Shown: positions 56,601-62,600 of the stretch, one piece after another
Position numbering within the stretch: position 1 is the first letter of the stretch
Layout of the letters: every line of letters begins with the position of its first letter
Assembly: GCF_051903065.1 (NCBI RefSeq)
Contig: NZ_CP178438.1
Length of the DNA: 64,000 nt
From: Escherichia coli
GTDB lineage: Bacteria; Pseudomonadota; Gammaproteobacteria; Enterobacterales; Enterobacteriaceae
Strand: one strand, 5' to 3'
Program-made: the position numbers

Positions 56601-59600
56601 TGTACATCACGTTGCCCCAGCCCTGTTGATTTTCAACGGGGGCAACGGAATGGATGACGTCGCAGTGCCACCAGACGGAGTCTCCGGCTTCGAGTTGTGG
56701 AATGCTGGTTAATGCCTCAATCAACAGTGGATGCCATTGCTCTGATACCGGCAATACTCTTCCGGGCGCTACGCCGCACAGTTCATCCTCCGGCACATCA
56801 TCAAGCAGCGGACGTAACAGTACGTACGCCATGGCTTCAGGAATGGGCACGACGTGCAGCAGCCCCTGACCAGGCAGCATATCAGAGAGCGCTGTCCAGC
56901 CCTGGAATGTCCGAAACACGGAACATTTGGTGGTGTTGTCCACCGTGTACTCTTCAACTTCCGTACGATGTGCCGCATGCCAGGGATCATATTGCGCCAG
57001 ATTGCCATTAAAGACGTTGGCGAAAACGCGCTGATACGCTGGAAGCAGCCAGCGTTCCAGTGCCCCGGAGTCGGTATGCGCTCCAAGACCTTTGGAGGTC
57101 GTTCCGGGCGGACGGCGGCGGATACGGTCAGGGTAGATGACGCTCACATCCGGGTTAAACCATTGCTTTCCATCACTTTCAAATGTCCACAGACGATTGA
57201 GAAACGACTGCGCATTCGCCATTTCTTCACTCTGGCGAGCCTGCATTTGCGCCTGCGACCAGTAGATGGGGTAAATCTCGGGACGTGAAGCGCTGAGCGT
57301 CCCGAAGAAATTATCGCCGGGGCCTTTGTAGACCTCGTCAAAGCGGTTGCGGTCCAGATAGTCCAGCATCGACTGATCCCAGCCTAGCGCTTGTTCGCGG
57401 GGGAAATGGCCTTTTATCACCGCACAACCGCGACGTTTAATCTGTTCGCGCTGCTCTGCAGTAACATGACCTGCTTTGATATCGGCATAAGACAGCACCG
57501 GCCAGACGGCATCGCCCTGTGCTTTGAGTGCGTTGATTTCAGCCACTCGCGTGGCAATGTCATCGCTTAGCTGATTAAAGATCTGCTGGACGTCGCCAAG
57601 CTGCGCCCGCAGCGCGTGCTTCATCTGACGGATAGCTGCTTTGTGATCGGCAGGCAATGTGTCGCTGGTAAAAGTAGAAGCCATAACCACCTCGCATTAA
57701 CTTTCATTCGAAACTATGCTGATTTGCATGTGACAATATAAGTTATAAATAAGTTAATGCAAGTTTAATGATTTGATGTGATGTACAGGATGTAAAAAGA
57801 AGGGATAACCGGAGCGCATGGCTCCGGTAGAGAGGTCAGCTGTTAAAAGGGGATGTGTTATCCAGTACAGCCTGAATCACATTCAGCGCGCCTTCATGAT
57901 TATTATCATCGGTAGCGTAACGGGCGATTTGTTTAATGTTTTCCGCAGCATTGCCCATCGCAAAGGAATAACGCGCCATTTTCAGCATCTCCGCATCGTT
58001 ACCGCTGTCGCCAATCGCTACCACATTTTGCGGTGACAGATCCCAGCGTTTCAGTAACCGCGAAATACCGTTTGCTTTATGTAGACCGGGAATAATCAGG
58101 TCGATAAAGCCAAAACCACTGGTGACGGGTTTCATAATGCCATCCAGCGCTATGTGCAGTTTGTCGATCACTAACGGGATTTGTTCATCCGGCAGGTTGA
58201 GCGAAAACTTGAACAGTACGTCGTCAATCTCCTGATAATCTTTTACAGGTTTCAGGCGATGGTAGTGTTTTGCCATCAGTGCGACGAATGCTTCGGGGGC
58301 GTTTTCGCTGACATATGCACTTTGCAGACCGCAGGCGACAAAATTGAGTTGCTTATCTTTTAGCAACTCGCCAATAACAATCCGCGATTCATGTCGGGTC
58401 AGTTCGCCGTGGAACAGTTGCTTGCCATGTTCGTAAACCAGTGCGCCGTTTTCCGCGACAAAAGAGATCTCATCCTTTAGCTCAGGAAAGAACGAAATAA
58501 GCTGGTAATACTGATTACCGCTGGCGACAACGAACTTGATGCCGCGCTTTTTCAGTTCCTGATATTGCGCCATAAAACGTGGTTGGTTGTACGTTTTGGC
58601 GTCGTTAAGAAAAGTACCGTCCATGTCTGTGACGATAACTTTTACGCTCATAGGTGTGCTCCTGGCTCGAAAATGAAACCGTAACAGTGTAATAACAATG
58701 TGACGCAGAGCACAAATTATATTTCGAATGAAAGTGAGAGTGAAATTGATGGTGTGAATGATTTAGCCCGGCGACGTCTCCGCCGGGCTGAGGGGATTAC
58801 AGCATATGTTCGGTACGGGCGATGATATCGTCCTGAGCGTCTGGAGAGAGCGCGGTGAAGAAGGCGGAATAACCCGCGACACGCACTACCAGATCGCGAT
58901 ACTGATCGGGATGTTTTTTCGCATCCAGCAGCGTTTCGCGGGAAACGATGTTGTACTGAATATGCCAGCCTTTATGCACCTCGAAGAAGGTACGGAGCAG
59001 GATCATCAGTTTCTGCTTGTCAGATTCGTTCTCCAGCGTCGCCGGATTCAGTTTCTGGTTGAGCAACACGCCGCCGAGAATCGCTGCTGTAGGCAGTTTA
59101 CCCACCGATCCAATGACTGCCGTTGGGCCGAGATGGTCAGTACCGGAAGCCGGGCTTGCGCCTTCTGCCAGCGGGGTATGCGCTTTACGTCCGTCCGGCG
59201 TTGCCATAGTCTGCGCGCCAAACGGTACGTTAGCGGAGATAGACGACGTACCCGCGTAATAGTTGCCGCCAACCGGACCACGACCGTAGCGCGGGTTATG
59301 GTACTGTTTCAGTTCGTCGATATAGGTCTGATAAGCGCGAGCCAGCAGCGTATCGACAGTATCATCGTCGTTGCCGTACTTCGGCGCACCGTTAATCAGC
59401 CGCTGACGCAGTTGCTCATGAGTCAGGCCGTCGAAGTCATCCGCCAGTGCGGCAGCCAGCTGTTGCTGACCAATCGCGCCCTGTTCAAACACCAGTTTCT
59501 TCACTGCCGCCAGGCTGTTGCCGAGGTTGGCAATGCCAACCTGCAGGCCAGAAACCCAGTCATATTTCGCGCCGCCTTGCTTGATACTTTTCGCTCGCTC

Positions 59601-62600
59601 AATACAGTCATCCACCAGCGCCGAGCAGAGAATATCGTGCACGTTCTCTTCCAGCATGGTGTCGACGACATATTCGATTTCGATTGATTTACGCGTGTAG
59701 TAACGGATTTGCGTATCCCACGCGTCCATTACTTCATCGAAATTGTTAAAGTTACCCGCTGACAACGCTTTTTCTTGTGGCAGGAACACTTTGCCGCTGG
59801 TGGCATCACGACCGCCTTCCAGCGCCGCCAGCATCACGCGGGCGAAGTTGATAAAGCTCATGCCGGTACAGCGATAGCCCCATTTGCCACCGACGGCGGT
59901 TTCGATACAACCAATCGCTGCATAGTCGTAAGCATCCTGCGGTTCAATACCGAGTTTAATAAATTCCGGGATCACGATTTCGTCGTTGTTGAACGCAGGC
60001 ATCCCGAAGCCGCAGCGGATCACCTGTACGCAGGCGTCGAGGAAATCGTTACTCATTCCTGCATGGTAACGCACGCTGAGGTTAGGCTGAGTGGAACGCA
60101 AGCGACCGCAGGATTCAAGGATCGCGTAAGAGAGGGGATTCACCGCGTCCATTGGTTGACCATCAACCAGATTTTGCCCGCCAATGGTGACGTTCTGATA
60201 CAGAGGACTTCCCGCAGAGGCTTTCGAGTGCGAGCCGGAGCGGATTTTGTTCACTTCCAGCAATTTCAACCAGCAGCTATGCAGCAATTCGATGGCGTGT
60301 TCGCGATCCAGCGTCTGTTTCAGTTCAACATCACGACGATAGTACGGGTAGAGATACTGGTCCATACGACCAAACGATACCGAGTGACCGTTAGATTCGA
60401 TCTGCAATATCAACTGAATGAAGTAACACAGTTGCAGCGCCTGCCAGAAAGTCTGCGGCGGCTGGTGGGCGATAAGATCGCAGTTTTCTGCCATCGCCAG
60501 CAGTTCATCGCGACGGCTTTCGCGGGTTTCGGTCGCGGCCATTTCACGCGCCAGGGCAGCGAAACGTTCAATGTGTTCACTGACTGCCACCAGCACGATA
60601 TCAATCGCTTTCAGGAATTGCTCACCGTGTAAATCTTCCAGCACCGTCAGGTTGATGCGCGAGCGACGTTCCGCTACTTTCTCGCGCAGACCATCAAGCC
60701 CTTTTTCCAGCAGCAGCGGGAAATTGACCGCCAGGTGCGCATCGCCGGAGGTCATATTGCCTTCCGCTTTAATGATTCCGGTCGCCAGCAGACTTTTTTG
60801 CTCATCGGTAAACATGCCGTAGCAGCGATCCTGTACCGTCTGACCGCGCCACCACGGGCACACTTCATGCAGAACGCGTTTGTTCTCTTCGCTCACCGCA
60901 AAGCCAGCACCGGGACGATCTGCCAGATCATCAATCTCTTTTTCGATCCACGAGACAGTATATTCCGGGAAGATCGGCGCGGCGCGAACTTCGCTTGCCT
61001 GGTTGCCGATGATCAACTCATCGTGCTTGATCCAGATAGTGCGATTCGCCAGGTGATGTGCCAGCGCCAGCGCGCGACGTACAGGGATCGGCTTATCGAG
61101 ATGTTGTTGATACATCTCGGTATAGTGCTGCGCGCGCTCGGTACAAACCGGCGGTTTCACAATATGCACCAGTGCATTTTTGTGCGCTTTAATGCGGTCG
61201 CTGAGCGTGTCCAGTTTCAGTGTGGTCATGGTTGTTATCCTCGTAAGGTCGCGGTTAACCCTTTCTGGCAGGCATACTGCTGGGCAAAGTCGAGCAGTTC
61301 TGGCGCATCAAGCGGTTTTTCCGGGGCGTCATAGGGCAGATTAAGTAAGTGATATTTGTTGATGCCCAGCGTGTGGTAGGGCAGGAAATGGATTTCGCCA
61401 ACGTGCAGCTCGTCGGCGGCAAAATCGGTAATGGCTTTTACAGAGGTTTCGTCGGCATTAAAGCCCTGAATCAGTGGCACGCGGATAATGATTTTTTTGC
61501 CCGCTGCGGCGAGTTTTTTCAGGTTATCCAGCACCCTGGCGGCGTTACCGTCGGTCCACTGTTTAAACGACGCGTCGGCAACGTGTTTTAAATCGGCAAG
61601 AAACAGATCGATATAGGGCAAAGAAGGGGCGATATATTTCCACGGCACATGCAGACAGGTTTCTACCGCAGTATGGATGCCGGCCTCGTGGCTGGCTTGC
61701 AGTAGCGCCGTCGCCATTTCCGGCTGCATAAAGGGTTCACCGCCAGAAAGTGTTAAGCCGCCGCCGCTGCGATCGTAAAACGGTTTATCGCGCAAAACGG
61801 TCGCCATGATCTCCTCAACGCTTTTCACTTCACCACACACGGTTAACGCCTGTGTCGGGCAGCAGTCGGTTAGCGCCGTCAGATGCCCCGGGGTTAACTT
61901 TTCCCGATGAATAAGCAAACCATTCAACGCGCGCTCAATCACGTCCGGCGCGGTCTTAGCGCACAGCTCACAGCCTTCCAGACACAGTCGTGCGTCATAC
62001 AGCAGATCCTGCGTGCGGGCGCGGCTTTCCGGGTTCTGACACCAGCGGCAGCCCAGCGAACAGCCTTTAAGAAATACGACCGTGCGGATACCGGGGCCAT
62101 CATGGGTCGAGTAGCGCTGAATATTGAAAATCATAGTTGCCTCTCTGTTTCGTTCAAACATTAAAATACTTTCGAATGAAAGTTAGATTGATGTGCGTCA
62201 ACTGTTCAGAGAGTTTTCCCGTGATAGTCTACATTCAGACAAAAAGTACATTTTGAGGATGGTTATGGAACTGTATCTGGATACTTCAGACGTTGTTGCG
62301 GTGAAGGCGCTGTCACGTATTTTTCCGCTGGCGGGCGTGACCACTAACCCAAGCATTATCGCCGCAGGTAAAAAACCGCTGGAGGTTGTGCTTCCGGAAC
62401 TTCATGAAGCGATGGGCGGTCAGGGGCGTCTGTTTGCCCAGGTAATGGCTATCACTGCTGAAGGGATGGTGAATGACGCGCTTAAGCTGCGTTCTATTAT
62501 TGCGGATATCGTGGTGAAAGTTCCGGTGACCGCCGAGGGGCTGGCAGCGATTAAGATGTTAAAAGCGGAAGGGATTTCGACGCTGGGAACCGCGGTATAT

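Follow-up and report, generated by a model that had tools for sequence, protein, structure and literature searches.

The ybiY-ybiW operon of Escherichia coli: an intact glycyl-radical enzyme and activase pair with a published hexitol-phosphate substrate

A stretch of 64,000 nt of Escherichia coli DNA, here called the window and numbered by its own positions, contains the glycyl-radical enzyme gene ybiW and its activase gene ybiY, which form an operon divergent from the aldolase gene fsaA. The pair is an ordinary, intact operon of the E. coli core genome and a member of a known system, and the substrate of YbiW is already known. YbiY and YbiW are very probably (probability of approx. 0.88) the activase and the ring-opening C-O lyase for 1,5-anhydroglucitol-6-phosphate (AG6P), with FsaA catalysing the next step. 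The initial annotation had identified the pair from the sequence and described its physiological substrate as not firmly assigned, and it named a published assignment as what would overturn this description. The identification stood. The premise of an unassigned substrate is out of date, as an assignment was published in 2024 and structures of YbiW and its paralog PflD are present in the PDB.

The assignment goes back to Ma et al. (JACS 2024;146:26187) as relayed by section 5.1 of a 2025 review (PMC12441222). According to this section, YbiW opens AG6P to 1-deoxyfructose-6-phosphate, and PflD forms the same product from 1,5-anhydromannitol-6-phosphate. Both pathways start with the phosphorylation of the polyol by a phosphotransferase system (PTS), and the product is further metabolised. 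The reaction of YbiW and PflD requires the glycyl radical and strict anaerobiosis, and the pathway enables growth of E. coli and many gut bacteria on 1,5-anhydroglucitol (PMC12441222). A sequence search against the PDB matched YbiW to 8id7 and 8yjn (“Probable dehydratase YbiW”, residues 1-810, 1852 bits), while PflD corresponds to 8yjo (“Probable dehydratase PflD”). Compared to native K-12 YbiW, 8id7 and 8yjn differ only in E114A/E115A/K117A, which look like crystallisation mutations. Concerning the following step, Ma et al. reportedly found that FsaA and FsaB split 1-deoxyfructose-6-phosphate into glyceraldehyde-3-phosphate and hydroxyacetone, and that GldA reduces hydroxyacetone to 1,2-propanediol. 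This role is consistent with the use of hydroxyacetone by fructose-6-phosphate aldolase (FSA) and with the K-12 gene order gldA-fsaB-ptsA <> frwC-frwB-pflD-pflC-frwD. Hydroxyacetone is known as a donor substrate of FSA, an enzyme whose role in the cell was still described as enigmatic in 2020 (PMC7767278). The 2024 work on the “radical-mediated glycolysis” of 1,5-anhydroglucitol also gave this long-enigmatic aldolase a role.

Database names lag behind these findings. K-12 YbiW is named ‘putative pyruvate formate lyase’ in RefSeq, many homologs are listed as ‘formate C-acetyltransferase’, the name ‘glycyl radical protein’ is also in use among the RefSeq, PGAP and NCBIfam names, and the PDB entries read ‘probable dehydratase’. 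Furthermore, a regulatory-genomics preprint of 2026 based on Reg-Seq still treats ybiYW as functionally unannotated. The lapse of the initial annotation is understandable, since RefSeq and NCBIfam names are generic or wrong and even this recent preprint calls the genes unannotated. Scans relying on database names will keep re-flagging the locus, which makes it a matter of annotation hygiene. The discovery value is small for a core operon whose substrate, product, structures and pathway were published in 2024.

The genes were identified from a list of open reading frames (ORFs) in six frames, which gave an ORF of 810 amino acids at 58797..61229 (-) and a second one at 61235..62161 (-). The start of the second ORF, ybiY, was set to 62134, as RefSeq annotates it in a record of identical sequence, which results in 299 amino acids, the same length as in the orthologs from three other genera (Yersinia, Mixta and Brenneria). 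ybiY lies upstream of ybiW with a spacing of 5 nt. The locus is made up as follows:

58797..61229, minus strand: ybiW, glycyl-radical enzyme of 810 amino acids (RefSeq name, Pfam/NCBIfam, K-12 and PDB match)
61235..62134, minus strand: ybiY, radical-SAM (S-adenosylmethionine) activase of YbiW, 299 amino acids (TIGR02494, K-12 match, RefSeq start)
62135..62264, no strand: control region between the divergent genes ybiY and fsaA, 130 bp, 2 positions differing from K-12
62265..62927, plus strand: fsaA, fructose-6-phosphate aldolase 1 (TAL_FSA, NF009296, K-12 match)

The limits that the initial annotation gave for the enzyme and activase pair, 58797-62134, proved exact by ORFs, RefSeq start and Pfam/NCBIfam matches, and the orientation divergent from fsaA, the C-terminal glycyl-radical motif (see below) and the intactness of the pair were likewise borne out. 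Both genes have a single terminal stop codon and the same length as in K-12. YbiW is identical to its K-12 counterpart at 805 of 810 positions, YbiY at 293 of 299 (six substitutions) and FsaA at 215 of 220. In ybiW, 78 codons differ from K-12, 73 of them synonymously; since only five of the changes are non-synonymous, the comparison indicates strong purifying selection. The five substitutions, namely, G146S, E184K, N304K, M315L and H474R, are all found at positions that vary among orthologs, and four of them introduce the residue that the crystallised ortholog 6xs4 has.

Over its full length, the window matches E. coli 23CRST027 (NZ_AP045789.1:1131706-1195705) with 100% identity. Of 5426 complete E. 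coli genomes, 5425 contain the 3.8-kb locus, annotated as ybiV / ybiW / ybiY / fsa in every case, but the allele of the window was matched at an identity of at least 99% in only 3 of the 5425. On the nucleotide level, the identity to K-12 was 99.5% for ybiU, 98.5% for ybiV, 96.8% for ybiW, 97.3% for ybiY, 97.7% for fsaA and 95.6% for moeB. This uneven divergence over 58797-63752 suggests a recombination boundary near ybiV/ybiW in addition to a rare allele.

YbiW matched the Pfam families PFL-like (PF02901, E 8e-210) and Gly_radical (PF01228, E 9e-33), and YbiY matched Radical_SAM and Fer4_12. With the NCBIfam models, YbiW scored 1405.9 bits on TIGR01774 (PFL2-3 subfamily; cut-off 678.2) and YbiY 367 bits on TIGR02494 (activase subfamily; cut-off 174). 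None of the substrate-specific equivalog models in NCBIfam reached its cut-off; the scores on the named equivalogs of glycyl-radical eliminases, which include HypD, CutC and sulfopropanediol dehydratase, stayed below the thresholds with 531.6 of 1100 bits (HypD), 520.3 of 1000 (HpfG) and 463.9 of 1050 (CutC). The radical glycine of YbiW is Gly786 in the motif RVAGY, and it aligns with Gly763 of 1r8w and with the radical glycine of PflB. The cysteine loop reads GCIE and contains the general base Glu443 and the thiyl cysteine Cys441, which aligns with glycerol dehydratase Cys433 and, in PflB, with the latter cysteine of the pair; His165 is also present. YbiY has a CX3CX2C motif at Cys25/29/32 and a cysteine-rich insert with Cys51, 55, 58, 91, 92 and 100.

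For the comparison of active sites, YbiW of the window was aligned with K-12 YbiW, PflD, PflB, three orthologs and the glycerol dehydratase of Clostridium butyricum, whose sequence was taken from the HMMER alignment to 1r8w. The following positions were compared:

YbiW Gly440-Cys441-Ile-Glu443: Cys433/Glu435 in 1r8w; Cys419-Cys420-Val-Ser in PflB; Cys419/Glu421 in PflD
YbiW His165: His164 in 1r8w; Arg177 in PflB; His156 in PflD
YbiW His282/Ser283: His281/Ser282 in 1r8w; Ala/Ala in PflB; Ser/Ser in PflD
YbiW Tyr344: Tyr339 in 1r8w; Trp in PflB; Gly in PflD
YbiW Ser662: Tyr640 in 1r8w; Leu in PflB; Tyr617 in PflD
YbiW Arg453/Cys454, part of a YbiW-specific insertion: absent in 1r8w; no entry for PflB; Gly/Leu in PflD

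The comparison with characterised glycyl-radical enzymes, which the initial annotation had proposed as a check, turned out in favour of the eliminase type, as GCIE and His165 match it. By this alignment, YbiW carries the machinery of a radical 1,2-eliminase and not the features that define a pyruvate formate-lyase, because it has GCxE and His165 but neither the Cys-Cys pair nor the pyruvate-binding Arg. The pocket appears to be remodelled in comparison to a small-diol dehydratase, with Ser662 in place of Tyr640 and the insertion with Arg453/Cys454, as would be expected for a bulky phosphorylated or charged ligand. His282, Tyr344, Arg453, Cys454 and Ser662 are kept in YbiW of the window, in three other genera and in a homolog with 54% identity, and all five differ in PflD. 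Judged from the alignment to 1r8w rather than from a ligand-bound structure, these residues would contact the substrate. Taken together, the sequence of YbiW fits the published substrate assignment.

Other functions have been attached to YbiW. That it is a pyruvate formate-lyase (formate C-acetyltransferase), forming acetyl-CoA and formate from pyruvate and coenzyme A (CoA), is almost certainly wrong. This function is suggested by the RefSeq name of the K-12 protein and by the name ‘formate C-acetyltransferase’ that many homologs and the PDB entry 6xs4 bear, and an applied study took YbiW as one of four formate acetyltransferases of E. coli; anaerobic activation is not mentioned in its introduction, its plasmid-construction methods or its results section 3.1 (PMC9055928). 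However, YbiW has Gly440-Cys441 at the place of the mechanistically essential pair Cys419-Cys420 of PflB, Glu443 instead of Ser and His165 instead of the pyruvate-binding Arg177. The identity to PflB is as low as 25%, the scores on TIGR01255 (163.5 vs 994.2 bits) and NF007437 (580.7 vs 1109 bits) are far below the thresholds, and a different substrate has been published (PMC12441222). The function was rejected on the grounds of the active site and the equivalog thresholds. A dehydratase for small diols or glycerol, as implied by ‘Probable dehydratase’ in UniProt and PDB and by the family name PFL2/glycerol dehydratase, is very improbable. The best characterised PDB match apart from YbiW itself was 1r8w (E 7e-164, 37.6% identity), and the catalytic set is common to both, namely, His164, His281, Ser282, Tyr339, Cys433, Glu435 and Gly763 in 1r8w numbering. 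The pocket differs, with Tyr640 replaced by Ser662 and the region of Asp447 by the insertion with Arg453, and the linked genes code for a sugar-phosphate aldolase and a DeoR regulator of the sugar-phosphate type and not for diol utilisation. Moreover, the published substrate is a hexitol phosphate, which is opened at its ring by isomerisation and does not lose water (PMC12441222). This function was rejected as well, since the catalytic set fits but the pocket, the genomic context and the published substrate do not.

A further explanation accepts AG6P as substrate in vitro and supposes either that a different phosphorylated 1,5-anhydro- or 1-deoxy-hexitol is the main physiological substrate in the gut, or that the enzyme serves mostly to detoxify a stray analogue of a sugar phosphate and not to support growth. 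AG6P is a toxic inhibitor of glycolysis in mammalian cells, where it is cleared by a dedicated phosphatase (PMC12441222), and in E. coli the sugar phosphatase gene ybiV is located directly downstream of ybiW. The E. coli operon has no linked transporter dedicated to it, and gene expression was very low under laboratory conditions (PMC7767278). On the other hand, growth of E. coli and many gut bacteria on 1,5-anhydroglucitol was reported (PMC12441222), and the existence of PflD as a separate paralog for the mannitol epimer argues for tuned specificity, so that a different main role is improbable.

Several points weigh against the assignment of YbiY-YbiW to the ring opening of AG6P. It rests on the study of one laboratory, known here through a review, and on PDB entries whose titles go no further than ‘Probable dehydratase’; it is not known to have been replicated independently. 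NCBIfam release 20 (June 2026) is without an equivalog model for the anhydroglucitol-phosphate function, so no curated threshold is applicable. Neither a PTS nor a kinase for 1,5-anhydroglucitol was found in the 64-kb window, which leaves the first step without local support. Finally, the FNR-like box upstream of ybiY is not significant as a single match, with seven matches in the window and 2.7 expected.

For the ring opening of AG6P by YbiW, a course of reaction can be proposed by analogy to the B12-independent glycerol dehydratase, with the substrate and product from the literature as fixed points. 1,5-Anhydroglucitol would be taken up by a PTS encoded elsewhere and thereby converted to AG6P. 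YbiY, with its reduced [4Fe-4S] cluster and S-adenosylmethionine, would abstract a hydrogen from Gly786 of YbiW and generate a stable, oxygen-sensitive glycyl radical, which would be passed on to Cys441 in each turnover. The thiyl radical at Cys441 would take the C2 hydrogen of AG6P, Glu443 would deprotonate the C2 hydroxyl, and the C1-O5 ether bond of the ring would be eliminated with His165 as the likely proton donor to O5. The C1 radical would then regain a hydrogen from Cys441 to give open-chain 1-deoxyfructose-6-phosphate, an isomer of AG6P that is formed with no loss of water. FsaA would finally cleave this product by a retro-aldol reaction via a Schiff base at Lys85, giving hydroxyacetone as well as glyceraldehyde-3-phosphate for glycolysis. 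The operon is expressed anaerobically, is repressed by the DeoR-type regulator YciT and is probably activated by FNR. FsaA of the window belongs to the Pfam family TAL_FSA (PF00923), scored 444 bits on NF009296 (vs 306) and 275.7 on TIGR00875 (vs 245.95), and has kept the Schiff-base residue Lys85. In this scheme, the substrates and the product of YbiW and PflD, the growth on 1,5-anhydroglucitol, the binding of YciT and the anaerobic promoter are taken from the literature. Gene identity, intactness, catalytic motifs, synteny and conserved operator-like elements were observed in this analysis.

Concerning regulation, ChIP-exo (chromatin immunoprecipitation with exonuclease treatment) has been reported to place YciT between ybiY and fsaA, with fsaA, ybiY and ybiV as regulated genes and ybiU listed with the YciT-regulated cluster. 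A Reg-Seq preprint reported that the ybiY promoter is active only under anaerobic conditions and that its repressor is YciT. The intergenic regions between fsa and ybiY of four genera (E. coli, Yersinia, Mixta and Brenneria) were aligned in the orientation of ybiY. Together with the 3' end of the operon, the following elements were noted:

62188..62201, no strand: FNR-like box TTGATGTGCGTCAA, found by pattern search, 9 of 10 FNR consensus positions
62168..62183, no strand: palindrome ACTTTC-ATTC-GAAAGT (ybiY strand), an inverted repeat between the FNR-like box and the -10-like element
58765..58789, minus strand: GC-rich hairpin with a 10-bp stem, 8 nt past the ybiW stop codon, no U-tract

The half-sites TTGA-N6-TCAA of the FNR-like box are invariant in the four genera, and Brenneria has the perfect form TTGATATAAATCAA. 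The centre of the box is located ∼60 nt upstream of the ybiY ATG. If the hexamer TTTAAT at 62160-62165 serves as the -10 element, the box would be near -41.5, the position of a class II activator site. FNR probably activates ybiY; a literature search found no paper linking ybiY with FNR. The palindrome, with the form ACTTTC-(A/T)TTC-GAAAGT across the genera, is the most conserved intergenic block in all four. Given the ChIP-exo and Reg-Seq reports it is a candidate YciT operator, and its position in the promoter spacer would suit a repressor.

The hairpin behind ybiW has a predicted RNA folding energy of -20 kcal/mol (z = -4.3), and none of 200 shuffled sequences was as stable. Its stem is kept in K-12 while the loop differs. 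It may possibly form the 3' end of the ybiYW transcript or stabilise it, but it was not called by a consensus terminator scan. In general, consensus scanning of 57600-63100 gave results at chance level, with six promoter-like matches (4.8 expected) and six terminator-like matches (5.9 expected). The only promoter match on the ybiY strand was disregarded as it overlaps the start codon. A separate promoter-like site for ybiV, TTCACT-17-TATAAT, runs from 58744 to 58716. An Rfam scan of the locus yielded no match at the gathering thresholds.

In Yersinia similis, Mixta calida and a Brenneria genome, fsa<>ybiY-ybiW has stayed together as a divergent block within surroundings that are otherwise unrelated. 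In all three, a DeoR-family regulator is situated beside the block, with 59-65% identity over nearly the full length to E. coli YciT (K-12, L008:4598-5347), whose gene is unlinked to the block in E. coli. These YciT-like regulators are:

Yersinia, L005:12847-13602
Mixta, L006:5910-6674
Brenneria, L007:7308-8054

The conserved neighbourhood supports the role of YciT as a regulator specific to the pathway, as it was reported from ChIP-exo and Reg-Seq. In Mixta, an ortholog of YbiU with 71% identity (L006:6807-8075) is located between fsa and the yciT-like gene. Among more distant relatives, the homolog with 54% identity to YbiW (P0121, L010:7025-10436) carries all pocket residues specific to YbiW. 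It is preceded by a sugar kinase of the ROK family instead of a PTS, a DeoR regulator and a HAD phosphatase are found nearby, and no aldolase is encoded within 8 kb of it. This locus may represent a variant of the anhydroglucitol route that depends on a kinase. For the homologs with 46% and 44% identity, the contigs were too short to show the gene context.

Two further genes follow ybiW on the same strand:

57836..58651, minus strand: ybiV, HAD-IIB (Cof-type) sugar phosphatase, downstream of ybiW
56419..57684, minus strand: ybiU, DUF1479/Gig2-like (Pfam PF07350)

Membership of ybiV and ybiU in the anhydroglucitol pathway is possible, for example with YbiV as an AG6P phosphatase. Going further, the three enzymes published so far may not make up the whole pathway, and ybiYW-fsaA could be the core of a wider regulon that is activated by FNR and repressed by YciT, in which YciT senses AG6P or 1-deoxyfructose-6-phosphate with its sugar-phosphate domain of the DeoR type and binds ACTTTC-N4-GAAAGT, while YbiV acts as a safety valve for AG6P, like mammalian G6PC3, and YbiU as another accessory enzyme. 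We regard this extension as tentative and rather doubtful. Part of it, namely, YciT binding and the anaerobic promoter, has already been published, and it may also be covered by Ma et al. The synteny of the YciT orthologs, the conserved FNR-like box and the palindrome could help to link what has been published on regulation with what has been published on the biochemistry. As a separate observation on ybiV, an NCBI contig protein of 1047 amino acids (P0011) fuses YbiW (99% identity) with HAD-phosphatase domains (YbiV); this call is probably an artefact of read-through or of a frameshift in the 145-bp spacer that separates ybiW from ybiV.

Elsewhere in the window, moeB lies at the right end, with moeA just beyond, and a molybdenum-cofactor riboswitch is annotated at 12454-12598 upstream of moaA, with moaABCDE in the window; the ybiYW-fsaA block is thus flanked by genes for molybdenum-cofactor biosynthesis. 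The left end (1-1149) contains genes for a glycosyltransferase of family 2 and a bactoprenol glucosyl transferase (gtr-like). They are followed, just before bioA, by a ybhB pseudogene that is interrupted by an internal stop (1700-2176) and by an InsQ/TnpB gene with a frameshift (2285-3401). Since the lambda attachment site belongs to this region, positions 1-3401 are probably a prophage remnant. In the RefSeq record with the identical sequence, 16863-17454 between ybhL and ybhN is annotated with a small hypothetical ORF and a DUF3969 pseudogene that contains an internal stop, and IS1A (28621-29318) adjoins espX2 (29540-31552), annotated as a type III secretion effector, between rhlE and dinG.

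When compared to known systems, YbiW and YbiY share with PflB and PflA the superfamily, the C-terminal RVxGY glycyl-radical loop and a radical-SAM activase. PflB is only 25% identical to YbiW, though, and with its Cys-Cys pair and pyruvate-binding Arg it cleaves a C-C bond with CoA. The PflA-type activase of K-12 has 246 amino acids, compared to 299 in YbiY with its cysteine-rich insert, and YbiY scored 168.8 bits on the PflA equivalog TIGR02493, below the cut-off of 231.75 bits. The B12-independent glycerol dehydratase DhaB1/DhaB2 of C. butyricum (1r8w) shares with YbiW the fold and the residues for radical 1,2-elimination (Gly, Cys, Glu and His), at an identity of 37.6%. Its substrate is small and neutral with water as the leaving group, whereas the leaving group in the YbiW reaction would be the substrate's own ring oxygen, resulting in an isomerisation, and the pocket differs. 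PflD and PflC of E. coli (with FrwCBD, PtsA, FsaB and GldA; 8yjo) are a paralogous enzyme and activase pair with the same product and an associated aldolase of the FSA type, and PflD has GCxE, RVAGY and His156 for His165 in common with YbiW. It is 39% identical and deviates in the pocket (H282 to S, Y344 to G, R453 to G and S662 to Y). Furthermore, pflD-pflC has the order enzyme-then-activase within a PTS operon of its own, in contrast to ybiYW without a linked transporter. The closest system is YbiW/YbiY of K-12 (b0823/b0824), with the same genes in the same position (ybiV-ybiW-ybiY<>fsaA-moeB) and protein identities of 99.4% and 98.0%. It differs by five conservative or surface-type substitutions in YbiW, six substitutions in YbiY and a nucleotide divergence of ∼3%. 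Every catalytic residue is conserved, as is the control region as a whole.

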